From a virus (taxonomy: Duplodnaviria; Caudoviricetes): a stretch of 43,632 bases of DNA. The stretch covers positions 1-43,632 of the IMG/VR virus record IMGVR_UViG_3300029822_001168. The stretch is one strand, 5' to 3'. Below the pieces are notes generated by a model, which saw nothing but the letters and a program-made list of their open reading frames with translations, ran no database searches and was not told the origin of the DNA. A program made the translations under genes and the position numbers. The number at the start of each line of letters is the position of its first letter. The first letter of the stretch is position 1. Below, in pieces: positions 1 to 41,858 of this stretch.

Positions 1-30
1 TTGGGGATTGAAAAAAAAGAAATTACTGAT

Positions 31-1459
31 ATGTATAACTTGGAATTATTTGAAGAATTAGGTGCATTATTACGCATGGAAAGTAGATATTGTAGTGATG
101 ATGGTGTATTACTGAAAAATGCTATTGTTGAAGATGCACTACAATTAAAACCTGAGCTAATACGATTATTGTTAACTAATGAAAGATTAAAGAATAATTT
201 TTTTAAGGATATTGACGGGATAACTATTTTTGATAAGGTAAGATTTCAAAAGTTCGTTATGAATAAACGTTTTTTACCTGATAGTTATACCAGTTTCAAA
301 AATAAAATTGGTCTAATTGGGGATAACGAAGATTTTTTATCTGAAAGTAGAGAAGTTGTTTTATCTTGGCCTTATAAGGATTGCGTTTTAGAGGGTGGTC
401 AAACAAAAGAAGATGCTAAACGTAATGAGATATTTTGGAATGAAATACTTGCACCCGACCAAATAACAAGGCTTACAGAGCCAAAAGTTTTATCTAATTT
501 CAAAAAGTATTCAATAGAAGGCGAAGAAACAATATCAGAAATTTCAAAAGAAGATAACCTAATAATAAAAGGAAATAATCTCTTAGCTTTACATTCTCTA
601 GCAGGCAATAATAAATATAAAGGACAAGTAAAGCTAATATATATTGACCCTCCATATAATACAGGAAGTGATAGTTTTCAATACAATGATAATTTTAATC
701 ATTCTTCATGGTTAACATTTATGAGGAATCGATTAGAGGTTGCAAAAGAACTTTTAAGAGAAGATGGAATTATTTTTGTTCAATGTGATGACAACGAACA
801 GGCATATTTAAAAGTAATAATGGATGAAGTGTTTAAAAGTAATAATTTTATTAATACACTTGTTGTAAGGTCATCAACGCCAAGTGGTACAAAAACGGCA
901 CATAGAGAAAAAACTATTATTAAGCAAAAAGATTATATTCATATTTATAAAAATGATGGAATAATAAAATTAAACCCACAATATATAAAAAAAGACAAAT
1001 GGGATACTCATTATTCTTTAATCCTAGAAAAAAAAGATAATAAATATATACTTTTGAATTTAATTGATGCTTTAATTAATGAAAACATATTAAAAGAGGG
1101 AGATTCGTTAAAGGATATAAATATTAATGATGATAGATTTAAAAAATATTACTTAGCCAACAAAAATAAAATATGCCGTCTTCAATCTCATAAAAATACT
1201 AAAGCCGAAGCTGAATCAAGAAAGTTAAATAATGAAATTTATGAACATTTTGATGAAAATTCAGAAAGTAAAGGATTATTTTATAATGGACAAGTAATAA
1301 CCCAACTTTCACAAAGTATAAATAAGGTTTATGATAATCAAACTTTCACAAATGATTTAAGTATGCTATTATGTGATTTATGGAATGATATTGATTTTCA
1401 AAACACACAAAATGAAGGTGGGGTAAGTTTTCCTACCGCAAAAAAACCCGAGATTTTAC
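31..1459 (+). pseudogene. mod: Type III R-M methyltransferase (Mod), 5' part, interrupted by IS
   Basis: IYIDPPYN catalytic motif and NLIIKGNNL motif; frame runs into the IS left end at KKPEIL; likely start ATG at 31. Confidence 0.9.
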
Positions 1460-1489
1460 GGCTCAGATGAAATATTTGGGGATTAGTTT

Positions 1490-1497
1490 TATATTTG
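1490..1497 (+). promoter_or_regulatory. Bacteroidetes -7 promoter element for IS transposase
   Basis: TATATTTG matches TAnnTTTG, 14 nt before the orfA start. Confidence 0.55.
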
Positions 1498-1511
1498 CAT
1501 AAAAAATAGAA

Positions 1512-1895
1512 TTGGAAAAAGCACTAATAGGTTATTTTTTGCCAGAAGGGTTACTTGAGCATTTTAAGATAACGAATGTAGAAGAATTAGGGGAAGTATC
1601 TACCAAAAGAATGGTTATTCAAGTAGAATTAGAGGAGATAAATACTATCCCCAAATGTTATGATTCATCATTATATGAATCTAAAGGTTTCTATCCTATA
1701 ACCATTGTTCAAGACTTTCCTATTCGAGGGAAGGCAGTTTATTTAGCAATCAAACGAAGGAGATGGCGTCATAAAGAACATAAGAATGAAATCATTCATA
1801 ACGATTACACTCTTATTGCCGAAGGTTCAAGAATAACGCAAGAACTTTCGGATTTTTTAAAAGCTACAGGTAGAGACCCGAGCAGATACCATTAG
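1512..1895 (+). CDS. ISL3 transposase N-terminal ORF (orfA)
   Basis: QDFPIRGK..YL..KRRRW motif typical of ISL3 N-terminus; inside the IRs. Confidence 0.85.
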   Translation: MEKALIGYFLPEGLLEHFKITNVEELGEVSTKRMVIQVELEEINTIPKCYDSSLYESKGFYPITIVQDFPIRGKAVYLAIKRRRWRHKEHKNEIIHNDYTLIAEGSRITQELSDFLKATGRDPSRYH

Positions 1896-2850
1896 CAATA
1901 TAGCCAGTTACTATGCTGTTCCAGCAGATAAATTACAAAGGCAATACAAGAAACATAGTAGCGGATATTCAGAATGGAATCAGAAAGAACATGCAGAGAG
2001 CTATTTACTTTTTCCCGAGAATATAGGTGAATATCTAAGTATAGATGAAGTATCCCTATCACAAGGAGAATTGTATACTTTCGTTACCAATAAAAATGGC
2101 AAAGGCAAGAAAGGAACCTTAGTAGCATCAATCAAAGGGACCAAATCAAAAGACATTGTAAATATTCTGGAAAAGTTACCATTAGAATCAAGGTGTAAAG
2201 TAAAAGAAGTTACGTTGGATATGGCAAAAAATATGGAATCCGCAGTTAAACAATCCTTCCCATGTTCTACACTCGTTATAGATAGATTTCATGTAGTAAA
2301 GTTAGCAATAGAAGGATTACAGCATCTCAGAATATCTTACAGATGGGAGGAATTAGACAAAGAAAACAAAGCAATAGACAAAGCCAAAAAGCAAGGAAAG
2401 AAATATACAGCCATTGAATTAGAGAATGGAGATACACCAAAACAACTTTTAGCTAGATGTAGATATATTTTATCTAAAAAAGCATCTAGTTGGACTGCAA
2501 CACAATCGCAAAGAGCTAAACTATTATTTAAACATTATCCTCTCTTAGAGAAAGCATATAAACATATATTGGAATTTAGAAACATATATGAGCTTCATTC
2601 TAGAAGCTATGCAGAGTCTAAACTCTTAACATGGATAGATAAGACAGAGAAATTACAAATGAAAGAATTTAACGCTGTAGCCTATACTATCAAATATAAC
2701 CTTGAAAAAATACTTAACTTCTTTAATAATAGAAACACTAATGCAAATGCAGAGTCATTCAATTCTAAAATTAAACTCTTTAGAGCTAATCTAAGAGGTG
2801 TTACTGATACTCAATTTTTCCTTTTCAGACTTTATAAACTTTTCGCTTAG
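1861..2850 (+). CDS. ISL3 transposase catalytic ORF (orfB), probably reached by frameshift
   Basis: Frame open from 1861; SIDE, TLDM, IDRFHV and TNANAESFNSKIK motifs of the ISL3 DDE domain. Confidence 0.85.
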   Translation, partial: KLQVETRADTISNIASYYAVPADKLQRQYKKHSSGYSEWNQKEHAESYLLFPENIGEYLSIDEVSLSQGELYTFVTNKNGKGKKGTLVASIKGTKSKDIVNILEKLPLESRCKVKEVTLDMAKNMESAVKQSFPCSTLVIDRFHVVKLAIEGLQHLRISYRWEELDKENKAIDKAKKQGKKYTAIELENGDTPKQLLARCRYILSKKASSWTATQSQRAKLLFKHYPLLEKAYKHILEFRNIYELHSRSYAESKLLTWIDKTEKLQMKEFNAVAYTIKYNLEKILNFFNNRNTNANAESFNSKIKLFRANLRGVTDTQFFLFRLYKLFA

Positions 2851-2881
2851 TCCCCAAAAAATTAATGTGAGCCGATTTTAC

Positions 2882-3456
2882 TTTATAGAATAATTGATTT
2901 GGCAACTCAAAAAAATGATATTGTATTAGACTATCATATTGGAAGTGGCACAACTGCTGCGGTTGCACATAAAATGGGACGTAGATTTATTGGAATCGAG
3001 CAAATGGATTATGGTGAAAATGATAGTGTGGTTAGACTAAGAAAAGTAATAGGTAGTAAAGTAAAAGATGGAATGTTTGAAAAAAACATATGGGATAAAT
3101 CTGGAATTTCTAAGGCTGTTGGTTGGAAAGGTGGTGGTTCTTTTGTTTATTGTGAGTTAGCTAAGGCTAATCAAAATTTTGTTGATGAAATAGACAATGC
3201 AGAATCAAAGGAACAATTAAATATTATTTGGGAGAATATTCAAATAAATGGTTTTTTGAGTTGGAAAGTTAACCCTAAAACAATCAACGAAGAAATAAAT
3301 GACTTTTCAGAACTATCAATTGAAGACACAAAACGTTTCCTTATTGAAGTATTAGATAAAAACCTATTATATATACCTCTTTCAGAAATAGATAATCAAG
3401 AATTTAATGTTTCTGTTGAAGATAAACTACTAACAAATAAATTTTACGGAAGATAA
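2882..3456 (+). pseudogene. mod: Type III Mod, 3' part
   Basis: Removing the IS and one TSD restores KKPEILLYRIIDLATQKNDIVLDYHIGSGTT (SAM-binding motif) in frame, giving about 667 aa. Confidence 0.9.
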
Positions 3457-22493: not shown

Positions 22494-22703
22494 CTACTTC
22501 TTTTTCTTAATGCTCTCACAGAACAGCACATCGTTGTACGCCTCACATAATTGTCTAATACTCATTTTATCAAGTATTTCAGGAGAATAATTAAGCTCAC
22601 ATCTCACTATAGCCCTCATAACCCTATAATCTTGAACAACCTTACGAGCTATATCGTTATATTCTGATGTACTAAGCTTTTTTATCTCTGTGAGAGCTAA
22701 ACT
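22494..22703 (-). CDS. -1 frameshift extension of tail assembly chaperone (gpGT-like)
   Basis: A AAA AAA slippery site at 22703-22709; -1 frame open 69 codons to TAG at 22494-22496. Confidence 0.7.
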   Translation of the reverse strand, partial: SLALTEIKKLSTSEYNDIARKVVQDYRVMRAIVRCELNYSPEILDKMSIRQLCEAYNDVLFCESIKKKK

Positions 22704-22999
22704 TTTTTTAGCTCTCCATCAACAATCTTAATAAGCATTCCGAGCCATTTATACAAGCCAGCCCTATACTCATCCTTTTCAACTAACTCTTTATCTCCAC
22801 CCAGCCAACAATTACTAACCAAAGCCTCCTGAAATTTCAAGTCGCTCTTGCCACTTGCCATTTTGCATGCATCCAAAACTAAAAGAGAAGGAGTATGCAA
22901 ATAGCCTTTCAATTCCTTGCCTTCATCTTTAACAACATATTCATAAATGTCCCCATATTGTTGTTTCCAAAGATCTATTTGTCCAGTATTAATTCCCAT
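22697..22999 (-). CDS. Tail assembly chaperone
   Basis: 100 aa between tube and tape measure; ends ELKKV. Confidence 0.8.
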   Translation of the reverse strand: MGINTGQIDLWKQQYGDIYEYVVKDEGKELKGYLHTPSLLVLDACKMASGKSDLKFQEALVSNCWLGGDKELVEKDEYRAGLYKWLGMLIKIVDGELKKV

Positions 23000-26352: not shown

Positions 26353-27318
26353 CTATTTTAATTCCTTACCAAATTTTGCTTGATACAATTTTTTGAATGT
26401 ATCAATATCTTCATTCTTTAGCCTAATAAGAGTTCCAGCCTTGTCCATCTTGTCCCACTGTTCTGCAGTAAGCTCAATTGACTGTTGCTTGCCCCCAATG
26501 TTAATAGCTCCTGCAACATCAGCCACAGGTTTAATGTCTGCCAAAACAGTCTCCAAAGCCTCAATGCCAGAATTTTTACCTAAGTTTAGATAGATTTCTC
26601 TTTTGTCTGCGGTAAATTTTTTGTCTGCTATTGCTTTGTCAACCAATTTAGCGATAGATTTTTCTTTGTCTTCCTCGAGTTTAGCCTCAAGCTCATCAGC
26701 CTTAGCAGCCTTAGCCTTCAACTCCTCAATGCTTGCCAATACAACGCTCTCCTCTGTATCATCCTTCAGGTTAAGAGCCTTAAATACATCTTTCATTTTC
26801 TTATCTTCTTTGTTTTCGTTTATACTTATAGCAGGGAAAAAATTACCAGCCCCACTTTTTAATTCAATAACCTTGTCGTTCTCATCGTATAATCTAAGAG
26901 CGTCATCGTTGCTTCCAAGGTCGCAACAACTAACCTCTCTTAGCTTGCTCTTAGTAAGAGTTGAGTTAGTTTGTCCTGGCAACAGAACAGTTCCATCGTC
27001 GCTCCACTCCACACATCTCAATCCTGGCGACACCATTCTCATTGTTCCTTCTTCGTATAGCTTTTCAATCTCCTTAGCAAATGGATTAGATTCCGAAAAC
27101 TTTAGTTCTCCTACTAAATTATCCCCCTCAAAAGCAATATTCTCAACAGTTCCAAGCACTGGATTCTTGCCGCCAAGATAATTAATCTCATCAGCTCTCA
27201 TATGCATATATAATAGTATAGGATTTCTCTTGTATTGAGTTATATCAATACCCGAGGTAAGAACTCTACCTCCGTATGAATTCAAATTGCTATTACTTAT
27301 AATTACTTTAATACCCAT
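26353..27318 (-). CDS. Prohead protease / scaffold
   Basis: NPILLYMH, LREVS..D.GSN..A protease motifs; helical C-terminal scaffold. Confidence 0.85.
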   Translation of the reverse strand: MGIKVIISNSNLNSYGGRVLTSGIDITQYKRNPILLYMHMRADEINYLGGKNPVLGTVENIAFEGDNLVGELKFSESNPFAKEIEKLYEEGTMRMVSPGLRCVEWSDDGTVLLPGQTNSTLTKSKLREVSCCDLGSNDDALRLYDENDKVIELKSGAGNFFPAISINENKEDKKMKDVFKALNLKDDTEESVVLASIEELKAKAAKADELEAKLEEDKEKSIAKLVDKAIADKKFTADKREIYLNLGKNSGIEALETVLADIKPVADVAGAINIGGKQQSIELTAEQWDKMDKAGTLIRLKNEDIDTFKKLYQAKFGKELK

Positions 27319-27353
27319 CTTTAATTAATAGTTTTTTATCTGCGAATCAGTTG

Positions 27354-27463
27354 CAATATTACAACAGTCTTGTTTTAAAATCCTGAAAAGTATGCATGGT
27401 GCGTACTTTTATATGCACCATGCATACTTTTCTCAAAAAAAAAGCCTCTCGAGACTACTTTTG
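27354..27463. promoter_or_regulatory. Divergent late promoters around an 18-bp perfect inverted repeat
   Basis: TAATATTG (minus, 27354-27361), TACTTTTG (plus, 27456-27463); IR 27385-27402/27415-27432. Confidence 0.65.
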
Positions 27464-27485
27464 CATAATTATATATTCAATCATT

Positions 27486-27935
27486 ATGGCAGGCAACAAA
27501 GGAATTCAGAATAAAAAAGACATTGCAAGGCAATTATTCGTTAAGGGCGATTTTACTCAAATCGAAATTGCGGAGAAAGTAGGTGTTTCAAAGGTAACCA
27601 TCAATAAATGGATCAAAGGAGAGAACTGGGACAAAGAAAAGGTTTCAATTTCAGCCACTCGCCAGGAGCAGCTAAAACGATTATACGACCAACTTGCAGA
27701 GATTAATAAGTTCATAGCAGACAAACCTGAAGGGACTCGCTTTGCCTCTCCTGCAGAAGCTGACTCAATGAATAAGATTGCTAAAGCCATTGAGAAGCTT
27801 GAAAAAGAAACATCTTTATCAGATGTTATAACTGTTATCACTGATATCCTTGAATGGATCAGACCACAAGACCTACAAAAAACCAAAGAACTTTCCGGCA
27901 TATTCGACTTATTCATTAAATCGAAATTACAATAA
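27486..27935 (+). CDS. Terminase small subunit (HTH)
   Basis: TQIEIAEKVGVSKVTINKW HTH; overlaps the large-subunit start; likely start MAGNK. Confidence 0.75.
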   Translation: MAGNKGIQNKKDIARQLFVKGDFTQIEIAEKVGVSKVTINKWIKGENWDKEKVSISATRQEQLKRLYDQLAEINKFIADKPEGTRFASPAEADSMNKIAKAIEKLEKETSLSDVITVITDILEWIRPQDLQKTKELSGIFDLFIKSKLQ

Positions 27936-29464
27936 TGAAGCCAGGAGAAAGACAATCATTTCTCTATTGGGAGAAGTATAGAAAGAACCTATTATCCGAC
28001 ACCTATGTTGAGCGTCGTGATTCTGTATCGCTTCAAAAACACAAAGAGTATCTTGAAGCTCACCCAATAGAGTGGTGTAAATTCTTTTTCCCTAAGTTTG
28101 CCAAAGCAGAGTTTGCTCCATTTCATATTAAGTTTTTAAACAGGATTCTTAATAATGCCGAGTGGTATGAAGTAATATCATGGAGTAGAGAGTTGGCAAA
28201 ATCCACATTGGTAATGTTTGCTATAATGTACCTTGCTCTTATAGGTAAAAAAAGGAATATAATATTAGCAAGTAACTCCTGGGATAATGCAGCCAGGCTA
28301 TTGGAACCTTACAGGGCAAATCTTGATTCCAACCCAAGAATTAGAGCCTATTATGGCAATCAAAAAAACCTTGGAGCTTGGGAACAGGGAGAGTTCACCA
28401 CTTTATCCGGAGTAGCTTTTAGAGCTCTTGGTGCTGGGCAATCACCCCGTGGATCCAGGAACGACGAAATAAGACCTGATACGCTTCTTTGTGATGACTT
28501 TGACACAGATGAATCGACTCGTAATCCTGAGACGGTTAAAAAGAATTGGGAATGGTTTGAACAGGCTCTTTATCCTACACGTTCCATTTCTGAACCTTTA
28601 TTGACTATTTGGTGCGGCAATATTATAGCTAAAGATTGCTGTATTACCCGTGCTGGAGCTTTAGCCGACCATTGGGATATCATTAATATTAGAGATAAGA
28701 ATGGCAAATCTTCTTGGGCAGCAAAAAACACCGAGGAACATATCGACAGAGTATTATCCAAAATCTCACTTCGTTCTGCACAGCAAGAGTATTTCAATAA
28801 TCCTGTTGTTGAAGGGACTATATTTAAGGAAATAACATGGGGAAAATGCCCTCGTCCAAATACTATTCCTTATATAATTGTATATGGCGACCCGTCCACC
28901 TCTAATAAAGACAAGGCGACCAAAACAAAGGGAGTATCTTACAAAGCTGTATTAGCTGTGGGTTATGCAAATAATACATATTATATATATAAGGCATTTG
29001 TCGACCAAACTTCTAATTCTAATTTTGTCGACTGGTACTACAGCCTTAATGAGCTATACAGTGGAAGAACCCAAGTATATAACTATATTGAGAATAACAC
29101 CCTGCAGGACCCATTCTATGAACAGGTATTTGTACCTCTCTTTAGAAAGAGAGGAGAGGAAAAAGGACATCTACCAATAAGTGGAGATGACAGAAAGAAG
29201 CCGGATAAGTTCGCACGTATTGAAGGGAATTTAGAGCCATTAAATAGAAATGGTCAAATTATATTCAATATAGAGGAACAGGATAATCCCAATATGCAAC
29301 GCTTAGTTGAACAATTACTTAATATCAATCCACGACTATCCTTCCCTGCCGATGGTGTCGACTGTCTCGAAGGGGCTATTGTAAAAATTAACGAGAAAAT
29401 TAAATCAAACTCTACCAGCTCTTATACTGTTGGTAGGAGACCAAAAAATACTAAACGAATATGA
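27935..29464 (+). CDS. Terminase large subunit
   Basis: SRELAKS, GQSPRG, RPD..LCDD, YGDPS and DGVDCLEG motifs. Confidence 0.9.
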   Translation: MKPGERQSFLYWEKYRKNLLSDTYVERRDSVSLQKHKEYLEAHPIEWCKFFFPKFAKAEFAPFHIKFLNRILNNAEWYEVISWSRELAKSTLVMFAIMYLALIGKKRNIILASNSWDNAARLLEPYRANLDSNPRIRAYYGNQKNLGAWEQGEFTTLSGVAFRALGAGQSPRGSRNDEIRPDTLLCDDFDTDESTRNPETVKKNWEWFEQALYPTRSISEPLLTIWCGNIIAKDCCITRAGALADHWDIINIRDKNGKSSWAAKNTEEHIDRVLSKISLRSAQQEYFNNPVVEGTIFKEITWGKCPRPNTIPYIIVYGDPSTSNKDKATKTKGVSYKAVLAVGYANNTYYIYKAFVDQTSNSNFVDWYYSLNELYSGRTQVYNYIENNTLQDPFYEQVFVPLFRKRGEEKGHLPISGDDRKKPDKFARIEGNLEPLNRNGQIIFNIEEQDNPNMQRLVEQLLNINPRLSFPADGVDCLEGAIVKINEKIKSNSTSSYTVGRRPKNTKRI

Positions 29465-29694
29465 TTAAGATTATTATTAGATTCTGGAATTTTATCAGAG
29501 TAAAGAACGCTATCATTTATGCTAACGAAATGCATAAACTAACCAAAAAGCGTTACTACGTATTGCAGATAGGTGGTAAAATTAGAGTATTAACCAAAAC
29601 ACAAATCGACTACTTAGTAGCTAAGAAGGTACTTCGCAAGTCAATGCAGGAATATCCAGTGCTTGCAAAAATGTGTTTATACCATACAGTATAA
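29461..29694 (+). CDS. Hypothetical protein
   Basis: 77 aa, ATGA overlap with terminase stop. Confidence 0.65.
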   Translation: MIKIIIRFWNFIRVKNAIIYANEMHKLTKKRYYVLQIGGKIRVLTKTQIDYLVAKKVLRKSMQEYPVLAKMCLYHTV

Positions 29695-29699
29695 TAATT

Positions 29700-30116
29700 A
29701 TGTATTTAGAATTAGATGATCTTAGAAAAGGGGCATACGAAGAGACTCTTCGAGTACTCCAACGTGAAGAACAAAATGCAGAACAAGCAATAAATGATGC
29801 AATTGGAGAAATAAAGCCATATCTATCTTCAATATATGACATGGACAAAGAGTTTTCTCTGGTAGGTGAGCAAAGGAATAAGCTAATATTGAAGTTCACA
29901 AGAGATATAGCTATTTACAATATATATTGCATATCACATCCAAGCAGCATGAATGAAACCAGGAGACTTAAATACGAAGATGCAATTTCGTTTTTGCAAA
30001 AAGCCTCTCAACAAAAAGTAATCATTAACGACCTCCCTCGACTTGCAGAACCAATAACTGGTGGCAATTATTCTATAAGTGGAGGGGGAAGAACCAGACG
30101 TTCGAATCATTATTAA
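29700..30116 (+). CDS. Mu gp36-like head-tail adaptor (DUF1320-like)
   Basis: AI.DAIGEIK.YL, DIAIYNI, YEDAISFL motifs. Confidence 0.82.
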   Translation: MYLELDDLRKGAYEETLRVLQREEQNAEQAINDAIGEIKPYLSSIYDMDKEFSLVGEQRNKLILKFTRDIAIYNIYCISHPSSMNETRRLKYEDAISFLQKASQQKVIINDLPRLAEPITGGNYSISGGGRTRRSNHY

Positions 30117-30125
30117 TAAAAGACT

Positions 30126-31367
30126 ATGAGCACAGCAACGATTAAGAAGGGAGATAATAATAAGAAAATCAATCTAACCAACATTAATATAATGTCGGTT
30201 AACAGAAGAACTCAAGATATCAAATCTTGGCGTAACGCTCTGAAAGCCTTTGAGAGTACTCTCAATCCTAATAGAACATTATTATATGACCTATTAGATG
30301 ACGTTCTATTAGATGGTCAGATAGAAGCCACATGGGGTAAACGTCAAGACCAGATTCTTAACAAGGATTTGCTCTTTGTAAAAGATGGTAAAGATGACGA
30401 GGAGATTAATAAGATACTTAATTCTCCGGACATGAGAGGAATAGTCAAAGAGATTCATAACTCCATAGCATGGGGTTATTCGCTTATTCAAATAAACTCT
30501 ATCACTTGGGATGAAGACCAAGAGCAATACAGAATAGATTATGAATTAATCCCTCGTAAACATGTTCACCCAGAGAGAGAATTTGAATGCGTAAGTATTA
30601 ATCAAGGAGTTCTTACTCGTGACTTCCTATACAAAGAAAAGCCAATTTCTGACTATATGATTTGGGCAGGAGAACCGGCCGATAAAGGTCTATTGTTTAA
30701 GGCTGCTCAATATGTAATATATAAAAGAGGAGGCTTTGGCGACTGGGCTCAGTTTGCTGAAATGTTTGGAATGCCATTCAGAGAGGTAACTTACGATGAT
30801 TACGACGATGCCACACGAGTTAAACTTGAGCAACAACTCCAAGATTGGGGTGGATTCTCATATCTACTTCACCCAAAAGGTAGCGAGCTAAAGCTTCACG
30901 AATCATCCTCAGGCAGTGGATCAACAGTATTCAAAGAACTTCACGATACCTGCGATGCTGCAATATCTAAGACTATTCTGGGCAATACACTTACAACCGA
31001 GCAGGGCAATAAGGGAACTCAAGCCCTGGGTATTGTTCACCAGGATGCAGAAAATGAAAAACACCTTAGCGACGCTAAGCTTGTTTTAGGCATACTTAAT
31101 ACACAATTTAAAGCTCTCTTAAAGCGATTTGGTTTCGATACAAAAGGAGGTTCTATCTGGTTTGCAACCCCAGAGAAAGATTGGAATGCATTACAGACTA
31201 AATGGAATGTAATCTATGGCATTGCAAGCATGATACCTGTCGAAGATGATTATATATACGAAGAATTTGACATCCCAAAGCCAAAGGATTATAATGCTAT
31301 AAAAAAAGAGAAAAATCAAAATCTTAAGGAGGACGACAGTTTTTTCGACTTTCCCCCTTTAGACTAA
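30126..31367 (+). CDS. Portal protein (Mu gp29/DUF935-like)
   Basis: WAQFAEMFGMP, ISKTILGNTLTT, ALGIVH motifs. Confidence 0.9.
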   Translation: MSTATIKKGDNNKKINLTNINIMSVNRRTQDIKSWRNALKAFESTLNPNRTLLYDLLDDVLLDGQIEATWGKRQDQILNKDLLFVKDGKDDEEINKILNSPDMRGIVKEIHNSIAWGYSLIQINSITWDEDQEQYRIDYELIPRKHVHPEREFECVSINQGVLTRDFLYKEKPISDYMIWAGEPADKGLLFKAAQYVIYKRGGFGDWAQFAEMFGMPFREVTYDDYDDATRVKLEQQLQDWGGFSYLLHPKGSELKLHESSSGSGSTVFKELHDTCDAAISKTILGNTLTTEQGNKGTQALGIVHQDAENEKHLSDAKLVLGILNTQFKALLKRFGFDTKGGSIWFATPEKDWNALQTKWNVIYGIASMIPVEDDYIYEEFDIPKPKDYNAIKKEKNQNLKEDDSFFDFPPLD

Positions 31368-31373
31368 AGGGGG
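31340..31373 (+). promoter_or_regulatory. Candidate -1 ribosomal frameshift signal
   Basis: T TTT TTC at 31340-31346, 6-nt spacer, hairpin CCCCCTTTA-GAC-TAAAGGGGG at 31353-31373. Confidence 0.75.
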
Positions 31374-32380
31374 TTAATCTTGAAGATAACGATATTCCTT
31401 CTAAAGCAGAACTTGCCGAGCAATATACAGAAAGCTTTACTAAAGGAGTAAAACAAGTATTCAACGCCAATATAGGAGACAAAGACTTCGATCTTCAACA
31501 TCGCCTGCAGGCAAATGTTACTAAATTCGCTTATTGCAAAGCTTCAGAAGCGGAGAAGATGATTGCTAAAACAGATAACTTCGCTAAAAAGCAACATATA
31601 GTAAAAAAACTTGACCTATACCAAAAAACAGAACGCAACACTACTATTGCAAGAGCTCGTTCAGCTAAGCAATACAATACTTTTTTACAAGAGAAAGACC
31701 TTTATCCAAACATCAAGTGGATTCCTTCTCGTTCTGCTGATCCTCGAGAAGCACATCGCTTGTTCTACGGAAAAGTCCTACCAGCTGACCATCCATTTTG
31801 GCAAGAGAACTTCCCTGGTAACCTATGGAATTGCAAGTGTGACTGGACTCATACCGATGAACCTGTTACTTCTTTTCCTCAAGCCAATGTAAAACCACAC
31901 TCAGGACTTGAAGGCAATCCAGCCCTTACAGGTGAGATATTCTCAGAGAAAACAACCTGGTTCAAAAAGGCAGGCAAAGAGGGAATTTGGCAGATTGAGA
32001 AAGAAATAAGAAAGAAATGCACTAAAAAAGCAAAAATAAAACTTATCAATAAACTTATCAATCAATCAATAATTACAAACGGGGGACAAAAGGAAATAAA
32101 GATAGGATTTTCAGCAAGAGGTATAAATCATCTTGAACACGACGGTTTTCCTAACTTAACTTATAAATCTCTATTAATGCCAATATTGGATGAAGTCGTT
32201 AAGATTGCTGTATATGTTGGAACTGATATTAATGATGACATAGAGAACAACCCAATGGTTAACCTGTATCATTATTTTAAAGTAATATTATTAGGAGAAA
32301 AATGGTACTTAAATGTAAGAGAATTAAAGGATGGCAAATTTCTTTTATACTCTTTAACACAAAGAAAAGAAGGTAAATAA
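31346..32380 (+). CDS. MuF (gpF) minor head protein with C-terminal extension, likely expressed as portal fusion
   Basis: KTERNT, PREAH, HPFW....PGNLWNCKC MuF motifs; frame open from 31328 but first start codon at 31559. Confidence 0.8.
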   Translation, partial: RLSPFRLKGVNLEDNDIPSKAELAEQYTESFTKGVKQVFNANIGDKDFDLQHRLQANVTKFAYCKASEAEKMIAKTDNFAKKQHIVKKLDLYQKTERNTTIARARSAKQYNTFLQEKDLYPNIKWIPSRSADPREAHRLFYGKVLPADHPFWQENFPGNLWNCKCDWTHTDEPVTSFPQANVKPHSGLEGNPALTGEIFSEKTTWFKKAGKEGIWQIEKEIRKKCTKKAKIKLINKLINQSIITNGGQKEIKIGFSARGINHLEHDGFPNLTYKSLLMPILDEVVKIAVYVGTDINDDIENNPMVNLYHYFKVILLGEKWYLNVRELKDGKFLLYSLTQRKEGK

Positions 32381-32484
32381 TCCATCACATGTTTCTCTAT
32401 CGGAAAGCAGCTGAAATTATAAACCTTCTTTTCATTTGCAAAGATACAACATAAAACACAAAAAGTCAAGTAAAAAATAAAAAA

Positions 32485-32940
32485 ATGAACCCTGACCAAT
32501 TTAAAAAGCATTTAAATGCTGTTCAAATACAGATTAAAACCTTTGCTAAAAAGGATGCTCCACGCATAGCTGGCAAGGTGGCAATAGACCACTTTAAGGA
32601 GAATTTTCAAAACGAAGCTTTTGAAAAAAAGAAATGGAAAGAAGTTAAACGAAGAAAAAGCAAATACACTAAAGGAGCTAAGAAAATAAGAAAAATACTT
32701 ACAGGCGACACAGGCGACCTTGGTCGCTCAATAGAAAATGCAAAATATTCTAACAATACCGCCACCATCACTTCCGACTTGCCTTATTCTGCAGTTCATA
32801 ACGAGGGGCTTCGAGCAGGTAGAGGTAGAGGGTTCAGAATGCCTAAACGTCAATTTATGGCTCATAGCTCTAAGCTTGCAGAAAAAACAGAAAAAGAGAT
32901 AATAAAGAAATTAGATATAATAATACACAAAACAAAATGA
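32485..32940 (+). CDS. Virion morphogenesis protein (Mu gpG-like)
   Basis: LTGDTGDLGRSI, YSAVHNEG, MPKRQFM motifs. Confidence 0.85.
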   Translation: MNPDQFKKHLNAVQIQIKTFAKKDAPRIAGKVAIDHFKENFQNEAFEKKKWKEVKRRKSKYTKGAKKIRKILTGDTGDLGRSIENAKYSNNTATITSDLPYSAVHNEGLRAGRGRGFRMPKRQFMAHSSKLAEKTEKEIIKKLDIIIHKTK

Positions 32941-39791: not shown

Positions 39792-41858
39792 TTATTCTTC
39801 AATTAAATAGCTGTTAACATCAACTTTTCCCTTCATATATTCTAAATACTCCTCTTCCTGTGTTTTAATGTCCTTGATTCTTTCCCTTTCTACTTGTTTT
39901 GCTAATAATTTCTTACCTTTATCAGCAACACCATTTTTCCTATCCTTATGCTGTCCCAAACTATCAGTAATCATAAGTTTGCTGTAAACCTCATTCTCTC
40001 GGTCCTCAATCATTCCTGAAGATCCACTTTCACTCAACATCTTTCTCACATTAGCCAAAGTAGAATAATCCTCAACAGCAACATCCAAAGCATTTTGTTT
40101 TAAAGCATCATTAAACTGATTAAGCCTTGTCAATTCCTCAGCGTCACCTTCTTTTCTATCCCTTAAAGCCATAGGTTGTACATACTTTTCTTCCAATAAA
40201 AACCTCAAACTTCCATCACCATTAACAGCCATAACCTTAGTCTTATCTGCTGGATCAAACATTATCTTCCAATCCACATGACTATTCCTTCTAAATACAG
40301 GCTCAAAGCTATCATACACCCTCTTATCATTATCAATTTGAATAACCAATCCCTCATGAGATAGTCTATTGGTTCTTTCCTTCGTTTCGCAAAGGTTAAG
40401 GAAGTATTCTTGTTCGCTAAGTATCAATCTTTCTTCTTGTGGCAATTCTTGGTAAGCCGTTCTATATGCCTCAACCTTCTTACTTCTTTCAATTGCCATA
40501 ATTGTTTCAAGTTGCTTAATCACACCCTCCTTAGTAGGTATTTCGTGTCTATGGTCATTAATCCACTTAGCATTTGGTTGACTACCTTTCTTTGCAGTAA
40601 CCCCAAAGCCCGACCAGTTTGGCATAAATTGACAATATGTTTTGTTTAAATACTTAAAGTATGGCTCAATAGTCTTAGCTTTTGCATTACCAATTTTTGC
40701 AGGAGTGTAAACATTTGAAACAGCTTCATAGAAAGGAATTATACTTCCTCCTTTACCATAGTTATCTGTTTGCAATTGTCCTACCTTGTGCATCGTTCCA
40801 AATAGTTCTTGAGTATGCTTAACAGCATTCCTGAAAGCTTCACGTATTAATGCAGTACTCTCATGATCGCCGATTGCATAACCAACAGGATACTTTCCGC
40901 AAGGGTCTAAAACCACTACAATAGTCAATCTCTTATGATATGTAGTTGTGGTTCTTTCATTCTTATCAGTACTTGTTTCCTGATAAACAAGTTCGGCCAC
41001 CCAACCATCAGCACTCCAAAATACCATAGGAAGCACAGGAGCGGAGCGTTTCGCTAACATTGTTTTAGTATTATTAAAATCACTAACACCCTTGCTAAAA
41101 GGAGCAGTAACCATATTAAACCTAGTCCTATAATTCCCAGCAGTAGAAGGAGAAATAGCCTTCCAACCCATTTTTTCAGCCAACATATTATATAGAGCAG
41201 CAACCTGTACATTATCTAAATTTGTGTGTATTCTTAGGATATCACGAATAGTAGCCTCCTGCTCAATATCCACAACGTTTGCACTATTTTTGTTCAAGAA
41301 CTTGCCACTAATCAAACACTCAAACCCTTTTTCCTGGTACTCCTTCACTTTTAATCTCAAACGACGTTCATTCTTAGGCAAATCATGTCCCAATTCGAAT
41401 GTCAAATCGCTGCAAGTACTACATATATTTGCCCATAAGTTCTTATTATTGCCACCCAAAGCCTTGACAAATGCCTTGCTATCATTAGTAATCTTAATCA
41501 AAGCGTCCAACACTTCAGCATTACGAGAGTATTTTTCTTGAATATCAAAAGGGAGAAAACGTCCATCAGCCAAAACATAATGAGCAAAGAACTCACGAGC
41601 CTTATAGTTGGTCTCAACAGATTGCCTAAAAACTTCTTTCGTATAATCAACCCTTCCACACACTTCATCAACAGTCTTGCGAATTTCAAAAGGCAACGAA
41701 TTATAATCAATCTGAGCCTCACGACCATTCCCACCAGTTGCAACCTTTCTGATTTTACCCCTATGCACCATCAACTTGTAATTGGAGCTTGTCAATATCC
41801 CTGAACCAACCAGCTCGGAATAACTAACACAGGTAATATTGTTTATAACTTTAGGCAT
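39792..41858 (-). CDS. MuA-like DDE transposase
   Basis: WSADGW, LQTDNY, AKTIEPYF give an intact D-D-E triad; 688 aa. Confidence 0.88.
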   Translation of the reverse strand: MPKVINNITCVSYSELVGSGILTSSNYKLMVHRGKIRKVATGGNGREAQIDYNSLPFEIRKTVDEVCGRVDYTKEVFRQSVETNYKAREFFAHYVLADGRFLPFDIQEKYSRNAEVLDALIKITNDSKAFVKALGGNNKNLWANICSTCSDLTFELGHDLPKNERRLRLKVKEYQEKGFECLISGKFLNKNSANVVDIEQEATIRDILRIHTNLDNVQVAALYNMLAEKMGWKAISPSTAGNYRTRFNMVTAPFSKGVSDFNNTKTMLAKRSAPVLPMVFWSADGWVAELVYQETSTDKNERTTTTYHKRLTIVVVLDPCGKYPVGYAIGDHESTALIREAFRNAVKHTQELFGTMHKVGQLQTDNYGKGGSIIPFYEAVSNVYTPAKIGNAKAKTIEPYFKYLNKTYCQFMPNWSGFGVTAKKGSQPNAKWINDHRHEIPTKEGVIKQLETIMAIERSKKVEAYRTAYQELPQEERLILSEQEYFLNLCETKERTNRLSHEGLVIQIDNDKRVYDSFEPVFRRNSHVDWKIMFDPADKTKVMAVNGDGSLRFLLEEKYVQPMALRDRKEGDAEELTRLNQFNDALKQNALDVAVEDYSTLANVRKMLSESGSSGMIEDRENEVYSKLMITDSLGQHKDRKNGVADKGKKLLAKQVERERIKDIKTQEEEYLEYMKGKVDVNSYLIEE

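Follow-up and report, generated by a model that had tools for sequence, protein, structure and literature searches.

The portal–MuF junction

How is the MuF head protein of a Mu-like phage made when its reading frame lacks a usable start? The question arises in a Mu-like transposable phage, the 43,632-nucleotide (nt) virus record IMGVR_UViG_3300029822_001168 (the window, meaning the whole stretch analysed), whose nearest named relatives lie in Bacteroidales genomes. From the letters alone, an earlier annotation (the original prediction) had proposed that a programmed −1 frameshift at the end of the portal gene fuses the portal to MuF. We find a shift signal, an open −1 frame and the absence of a usable MuF start, and all three are conserved. 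A programmed −1 frameshift that yields a plain portal and a portal–MuF–tip fusion is thus very probable, on sequence evidence. The junction contains the following features.

30126–31367, + strand: portal gene, Mu-type (DUF935/Portal_Mu; PF06074, expectation value (E) 1.3e-72 over residues 54–383; phrog_113, portal); zero-frame product of 413 residues, 47 kDa
31325–31327, + strand: TAA closing the −1 frame upstream, so that a productive shift must fall within 31328–31364
31327–31332, + strand: AGGAGG, 7 nt before the heptamer, probably incidental
31340–31346, + strand: slippery heptamer T TTT TTC in portal phase (Ser-Phe-Phe)
31347–31352, + strand: spacer of 6 nt between heptamer and hairpin
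31353–31373, + strand: hairpin of 9 base pairs (bp; five G-C, four A-U) with a 3-nt loop, the predicted 3′ stimulator
31340–32380, + strand: −1 open reading frame (ORF), 346 residues from the heptamer, with MuF domain and tip; predicted C-terminal part of a 751-residue fusion
31403–31567, + strand: two MuF helices (residues 22–40 and 50–76), nearly all upstream of Met74
31559–31561, + strand: first ATG in the −1 frame (residue 74), chosen as start by the gene caller
32012–32377, + strand: variable C-terminal tip, LPD3-like, with a predicted BECR (RelE/colicin D/CdiA-CT) fold

In portal phase the gene ends AGT TTT TTC GAC TTT CCC CCT TTA GAC TAA, and the stop (31365–31367) opens the 3′ arm of the hairpin. 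The −1 frame is open from 31328 to 32380. Its first ATG, GTG or TTG is ATG 31559, 71 codons past 31346; the only near-cognate starts ahead of it are ATT 31394, ATA 31472 and CTG 31505. The original prediction placed the heptamer, the spacer, the stop-containing hairpin, the upstream TAA and the 71 start-less codons correctly, and recomputation returned the same products, a 413-residue portal and a 751-residue fusion (86 kDa). Its marker peptide DDSFFRLSPFR contains a trypsin site; for the window the diagnostic tryptic peptide would be the short one whose last residue is the Arg encoded at 31346–31348. Its ‘GC-rich 9-bp hairpin’ does have 9 bp, while ‘GC-rich’ is generous for five of nine pairs.

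The junction is real DNA and no assembly error, since the assemblies L001, L164 and L166 (L-numbers label the relative loci of our comparison set) have the same one; contigs from four runs of four studies have no indel near it, the listed indels beginning at 32200. Strain variants in the hairpin among the four studies' contigs fall in the loop or change an A-U pair to G-U.

At −13.2 kcal/mol (z −1.7; 16 of 200 shuffles equally good) the window hairpin on its own is unremarkable, and it is conservation that decides. Among the 28 TTTTTTC sites on both strands of the window, the junction site has the most stable downstream fold; only two of the 28 pass −9 kcal/mol. The dnaX heptamer of Escherichia coli, A AAA AAG, is accompanied by an upstream Shine–Dalgarno sequence. 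A signal of this dnaX/IS3 type was considered and rejected here: the window has a Shine–Dalgarno-like motif, but the motif is not conserved, occurring upstream of the heptamer in two of the 56 sites with MuF in −1 (type A sites, below) and in 4 of 74 sites overall.

Conservation of the heptamer

For comparison, 243 loci were fetched by portal-core peptide patterns that leave out the junction, each scan keeping its best 80. With the window included, the 244 loci comprise 167 with MuF in the −1 frame, 36 fusions, seven with MuF in +1, one scored 0, 19 with no MuF found and 14 in which the portal is cut off. At 80% core identity there are 101 representatives: 59 in −1, 27 fused, five in +1, one scored 0 and nine with no MuF found. 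The locus scored 0 (L005), in which the signal is present and a later frame break lies inside MuF, was kept out of the 59.

Phe-Phe lies in the last 25 residues of all 120 portal homologues among the matches listed, and in 104 it is three residues from the end; body windows contain it in 14 of 1225 cases. Within the last 22 codons, Phe-Phe occurs in 56 of the 59 −1 relatives, and every one of these 56 type A sites reads T TTT TTY in phase (51 with TTC). Local codon usage would give about 24 for the leading T and about 31 for the first TTT, and elsewhere in the same genes (44,094 codons) only 3 of 28 Phe-Phe pairs read T TTT TTY.

Heptamers of the X XXY YYZ kind lie in phase in 58 of the 59, two of them being A AAA AAG (L122) and C CCT TTC (L046). 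L115, the one relative with no heptamer, has lost the signal and carries instead a TAATG overlap with an ATG. To judge by their sequences, all three exceptions fit the frameshift reading. The same phase relation holds across portals of 27–100% identity. As measured in E. coli, H_HH.U_UU.Y ranks with the most shift-prone heptamers, and C_CC.U_UU.C is called a high-level site (PMC4066793; here and below, papers are cited from the portions of their text that were available). A sample from Bacteroides (not dereplicated; the best 30 loci among 59 matches from 40 of 201 genomes) contained 27 type A loci, one inverted locus (see below), one out of phase and one cut short, so that the junction signal is present at most of the portal loci sampled (28 of 30).

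Conservation of the hairpin

Is there a structure to go with the heptamer? In 47 of the 56 type A sites the sequence past the heptamer folds within the top 5% of windows from its own locus (median −15.1 versus −5.1 kcal/mol), and the dip in folding energy is limited to 0–35 nt past the heptamer. In 55 of 74 sites the best stem begins 5–6 nt past the heptamer. Because a gapped alignment of the junctions could not register hairpins of unequal loop length, pairing was assessed by an anchored arm-swap test. The six-base arms, 30 of them different, find a Watson–Crick partner in their own locus in 61 of 74 cases and in another's in 103 of 4908 (2.1%). G-C and C-G are exchanged at several stem pairs across relatives. 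The stems thus covary and the structure is conserved; that it stimulates a shift is a prediction. With heptamer and hairpin both conserved at portal–MuF junctions, a check proposed in the original prediction has come out in its favour.

To what is the hairpin tied? The portal stop lies anywhere from 7 to 52 nt past the heptamer while the stem holds at 5–6 nt. The hairpin is therefore tied to the heptamer and not to the stop.

Where does MuF begin?

The MuF–tip protein is modelled with a predicted local distance difference test score (pLDDT) of 89.5 and a predicted template modelling score (pTM) of 0.88, and PF04233 matches residues 85–168. The two helices that lie mostly ahead of Met74 belong to a block with pLDDT 92–98, and the match to phrog_19194 begins at residue 23 of the −1 ORF. 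Compared with L166, the first 80 codons (31340–31579) show eight synonymous and two non-synonymous codon differences. Sequence and model thus support coding constraint on the stretch ahead of 31559, which is predicted to fold as part of MuF; a start at 31559 would remove most of the two confidently modelled helices. The frame between 31346 and 31558, whose lack of conservation would have spoken against the original prediction, therefore bears the marks of a translated sequence. In most relatives the MuF N-terminus extends about 40 residues further than in the window.

An ATG overlaps the portal stop in 5 of the 56 type A sites, and one occurs anywhere up to 30 nt past it in 10, leaving 46 of 56 without. 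In 26 of the 56 there is no ATG before the MuF profile begins, though only six lack ATG, GTG and TTG alike. The −1 phase alone is weak evidence, because ATGA and TAATG overlaps also give −1.

Inverted and +1 wirings

In-frame portal–MuF fusions make up 27 of the 101 representatives. If such a fusion needs no shift, what becomes of the signal? In 15 of the 27 the linker still contains T TTT TTC together with a strong hairpin, and all 15 fall in the top 5% for folding. A scan by MuF protein only returned 80 loci; of the 77 with a portal, 75 are signal-bearing in-frame fusions. At these inverted junctions the −1 frame stops after 16–33 codons and would give a short portal. Of 40 distinct junctions, 37 encode Pro-His in the −1 tail, against 29 of 720 in the control, and 29 encode W-x(1-2)-P-H. 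All four Pro and both His codons are used, while the fusion frame reads seven different dipeptides at the same place. With Pro-His kept by synonymous codons and the fusion frame varying, selection acts on a peptide that only a shift makes. The 40 inverted junctions are close kin; the Pro-His motif turns up again in portals that are distant (Solitalea, Parabacteroides, Porphyromonas phage007a).

In a third state, found in three representatives, the portal phase reads TTT TTT C, the zero frame encodes the W..PH tail and MuF follows in +1. The hairpins of this state are weaker (one of three in the top 5%). UUU_Y is known as +1-prone in bacteria (PMC5009743).

The wirings are intermixed on a quick portal tree (71 rows, leaving out portals cut by contig ends and short-flank loci without MuF), with eight changes of the inverted type, at least six of them forced. 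Exchange of the MuF module at the junction can explain this as well as repeated indels can, and we claim no order of events.

Portals with a separate MuF start (L063, L236, L246, L330) end in His- or Cys-His tails (..PHDC.., ..CKH), and several inverted tails contain Cys and His; such portal ends may bind metal. In one clade of the related portals (L053–L060, L121, L217–L221) the protein ends directly after the core, tail and heptamer are absent, and no MuF was found within up to 3 kb downstream.

Cultured phages

Do cultured phages share the junction? In hankyphage jmh43_hp we find the heptamer, the hairpin and a −1 frame open into its ‘minor head protein’. Elizabethkingia phage TCUEAP3 likewise has heptamer, hairpin and open −1 frame, its annotated MuF start lying 275 nt past the stop, and a Porphyromonas phage carries the signal as well. 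Peternella_1 and fF4, with A-run heptamers and an open −1 frame, are weaker cases. Mass spectrometry of hankyphage capsids gave 20 peptides for the portal and three for MuF (PMC12135933, S6 Table).

Weighing the readings

The scheme that we favour, at a probability of roughly 0.86, is as follows. Normal reading of the junction would yield the 413-residue portal, and a fraction of ribosomes would slip back one base at U UUU UUC and make the 751-residue fusion. In the slip, two tRNA-Phe would leave UUU UUC and pair anew with UUU UUU, held up in translocation by the hairpin. The two kinds of subunit would co-assemble in one portal ring, and MuF with its tip would be carried into the head as an attached part of the portal; SPP1 gp7, in contrast, enters by binding the portal. 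Sister lineages would use this signal in reverse, with the fusion in the zero frame and the short portal made by −1, and a small group has its MuF in +1, behind TTT TTT C.

Could MuF instead be translated separately, either coupled to termination at the portal stop or initiated internally (at ATG 31559 or the near-cognate ATT 31394), its −1 phase a consequence of ATGA or TAATG overlaps? Such overlaps do occur, in the 5 of 56 sites mentioned, in several Bacteroides loci and in L115, and ATT 31394 lies ahead of the first helix. A perfect TTGACA-17-TATAAT at 31267–31295, inside the portal gene, might serve such a start, yet even a looser pattern occurs in only 3 of the 56 type A sites; like the Shine–Dalgarno-like motif it is not conserved, and it is likely to be a by-product of the FDIPKP..Y motif. 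The 46 sites without a nearby ATG and the helices lost from 31559 speak against separate initiation, which also leaves unexplained the synonymous lock on T TTT TTY, the covarying hairpin and their survival in in-frame fusions. We regard it as improbable. Slippage of RNA polymerase on the T run, adding a U, would realign the transcript and give the same two proteins; some relatives have runs of seven to nine T, and Peternella_1 and fF4 have A runs. Most sites, however, have a run of six T, closed by C in 51 of 56 and held in codon phase, and the hairpin sits at ribosome spacing, where it would not yet be transcribed as the polymerase reads the run. This makes transcriptional realignment very improbable.

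A third possibility dispenses with recoding: Phe-Phe would be a protein motif of the portal end, and MuF expression would be reduced by the hairpin, acting as terminator, attenuator or RNA-processing site. Portal tails do conserve an amphipathic segment that ends in FF, and a scanner scored the window hairpin as terminator-like. But an intrinsic terminator was rejected as a candidate, since a U-tract follows the stem in 1 of 74 sites, the window itself; the T run precedes the stem, and it is the other strand that has A's after it. A protein motif, moreover, does not fix synonymous bases, and MuF would still have no start. We give this a slighter chance still. In-frame fusions being common (27 of 101) and homopolymers error-prone, one might also suspect that a sequencing error or a recent mutation broke such a fusion; the agreement among L001, L164, L166 and four independent studies, and the constant phase across portals of 27–100% identity, refute this, and its probability is close to nil.

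Several observations weigh against the programmed frameshift or limit its reach. The shift itself is deduced from sequence, and the shiftiness of the heptamers is known from E. coli, not from Bacteroidota. The relatives share ancestry, the 40 inverted junctions most of all, so the counts overstate the number of independent events. Nine of the 56 sites fall outside the top 5% for folding. About one-third of the 27 Bacteroides type A loci have an ATG 39–48 nt past the heptamer, at or next to the stop; there coupled initiation may also make free MuF, and both routes may run. Mu, lotta8-1 and FPSV-S1 have separate MuF starts in +1, as do two of the five ‘+1’ representatives. Twelve of the 27 fusions lack the T TTT TTC signal, and nine of the 101 representatives, close relatives, have no MuF found; the relatives as a whole thus depend on neither the switch nor a low number of MuF copies. 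L335 (G158:C1) has a junction near-identical to that of L333, but its motif does not lie in portal phase and its 3′ arm lacks one G, by sequencing error or by decay. Hankyphage MuF was found in the 250–85 kDa gel slice, where a 108-kDa fusion would run, and in both lower slices, and small proteins (Gam, the head–tail adaptor) were also in the top slice (PMC12135933); for both reasons the slices neither show nor exclude the fusion.

What might the shift be for? SPP1 gp7 enters the head in few copies by binding the portal (PMC6316719, PMC5576092), and by analogy a minority fusion would fit the window. The original prediction held that recoding sets how many portal subunits carry MuF. For this window the idea fits, but the few-subunit rationale is not general: given the inverted state and the 12 signal-less fusions, low copy number is no general need, and a fixed low number of MuF copies is doubtful. 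Either the shift lies near balance or the ring tolerates a wide range of MuF. Making both forms seems to be what is selected.

A broader reading goes further. Portals are usually taken to be rings of identical subunits. The portal ring of Bacteroidota transposable phages may be a deliberate mixture of two isoforms, governed by a single recoding switch that has repeatedly changed polarity, making the fusion by −1, the short form by −1 or the fusion by +1, with MuF cargo, including the predicted glutamine-deamidase tip of hankyphage, made and loaded mainly as a covalent extension of the portal. We hold this tentatively, at a little under even odds. If it is true, the annotated ‘minor head proteins’ and MuF toxins of the group are mis-started fragments.

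Relation to known systems

The probable frameshift switch at the portal–MuF junction is well supported by sequence; the principle of frameshift-extended virion proteins is known. Frameshifts have been reported for capsid, tail tube and tail chaperone genes (PMC5009743, PMC6316719). The major capsid proteins of T3/T7, the head and tail proteins of Lactobacillus phage A2, those of Listeria A118/A500/PSA and SPP1 gp17.1* are alike in having short and long structural subunits with a shared N-terminus, the shift setting the share (PMC5009743, PMC6316719). They differ in being capsid or tail tube proteins, mostly with an Ig-like surface extension, whereas the window would join a portal to an otherwise free head protein whose variable tip is proposed to lie inside the head. 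The tail chaperones gpG/gpGT of lambda and most long-tailed phages share a heptamer near the end of the first ORF, a −1 overlap and a fixed ratio, and SPP1 17.5 has a putative UUUUUUC, the same heptamer as the window portal (PMC5009743, PMC6316719); unlike the portal, tail chaperones are absent from the virion.

One signal used in both directions is a natural experiment. We know of no switching of polarity between lineages for dnaX, which differs further in being a host replication gene. E. coli dnaX (tau/gamma) is nevertheless a model for the inverted wiring, its −1 frame soon reaching a stop and giving the shorter product (PMC5009743, PMC4066793).

SPP1 gp7 and the MuF polymorphic toxins, Bxa and Apk2 among them, also encode MuF directly behind the portal gene, with few copies in each head and a variable C-terminal cargo, but they are described as separate proteins targeted by portal binding, and MuF toxin delivery is still described as a hypothesis (PMC5576092, PMC6316719, PMC11699363). 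A recoded portal–MuF would offer a genetic route for loading the cargo and setting its copy number, an open point for MuF toxins; it touches hankyphage, widespread in the gut, and would correct many annotations. Constitutive fusions in Microbacterium clusters EA3/5/8 and EB (PMC7302621) and portal/MuF-PBECR architectures (PMC5512222) indicate that a covalent portal–MuF is viable. They are treated there as single products with no recoding proposed, while many of the Bacteroidota fusions keep the shift signal at the junction.

The original prediction knew of no such mechanism for portals, and our literature search agrees: it returned no frameshift at a portal–MuF junction, although the PMC4066793 supplements, the GeneTack clusters (Antonov et al.) or subscription papers could list the site. 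Term look-ups in the available portions of PMC5576092, PMC8008677, PMC7302621, PMC5512222, PMC11699363, PMC10367356, PMC12135933, PMC4066793, PMC5009743, PMC10885494, PMC2628397, PMC8776804, PMC4493119 and PMC6316719 likewise returned no portal frameshift, and the word ‘frameshift’ is absent from those of PMC5576092 and PMC11699363. The nearest remark comes from PRFect, that genes fused in some genomes (there MuF-like with VIP2) may frameshift when split (PMC10885494).

The variable tip

With a MuF domain followed by a variable C-terminal domain, the protein has the architecture of a MuF polymorphic toxin. The portal of L001 is 99% identical to that of the window and its tip only about 41%. 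The tip is exchanged among near-identical phages (31943–32475 against L001 and runs X4 and X5, X5 diverging from 31992).

What is the tip? It has no Pfam match itself, while its close homologues match PF18798. Against LPD3 clusters it scores 0.93 in the ESM Atlas, and 2031 in recognition, under the threshold of 2300. Folded alone (pLDDT 94), it finds as best matches nearly always BECR RNases (CdiA-CT, BrnT, colicin D, MqsR, RelE/ParE), all weakly (Z at most 5.1, root-mean-square deviation 3–4; best Foldseek E 0.023). No residue is invariant among 20 tips. The 53 scanned ORFs comprise 16 tips of the LPD3 family, four CdiA_C, three Gln_amidase and two PBECR2, the others matching none. No immunity gene follows MuF: 104 nt separate it from the neck gene, with no same-strand ORF of at least 40 residues between. 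Of the ‘MuF-effector’ in the original prediction, the MuF domain with its variable tip stands; the effector is a prediction from weak LPD3/BECR likeness, with no immunity gene beside it, and such a role is plausible on sequence and model. Fold searches with the whole MuF model listed only generic helical matches and no solved MuF relative, which does not show a new fold. The MuF ORF of hankyphage jmh43_hp (L244:4727–6205) ends in a predicted papain-fold glutamine deamidase (PF15644, E 1e-9), found also in L133 and L227.

Other features of the phage

Two further features place the junction within the phage.

26353–32940, mixed strands: Mu-like head module, with the protease gene on the − strand, terminase small subunit, gp36 adaptor, portal, MuF and neck
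39792–41858, − strand: transposase, marking a transposable phage

The head-module set of a Mu-like (transposable) phage is present, with Portal_Mu, MuF, gp36 adaptor, Mu-like protease, neck gene and Mu-type transposase, and the gene order of the module is that of hankyphage. The terminase large subunit is assigned by its position.

A putative recoding signal also lies in the tail genes. The tail chaperone gene (22494–22999, − strand) ends CTA AAA AAA GTT TAG; behind its heptamer A AAA AAA (22709–22703) the −1 frame is open for 71 codons and reaches the tape measure gene. This is a classical G/GT-like site, and the portal site is a second, independent one in the same phage. At the left end of the window (1–3456), a transposase element (phrog_5749, 1512–2850) sits between two ORFs that both match the DNA methyltransferase family phrog_67, and the element's own two ORFs overlap out of frame near TTTTTTAAAAG.

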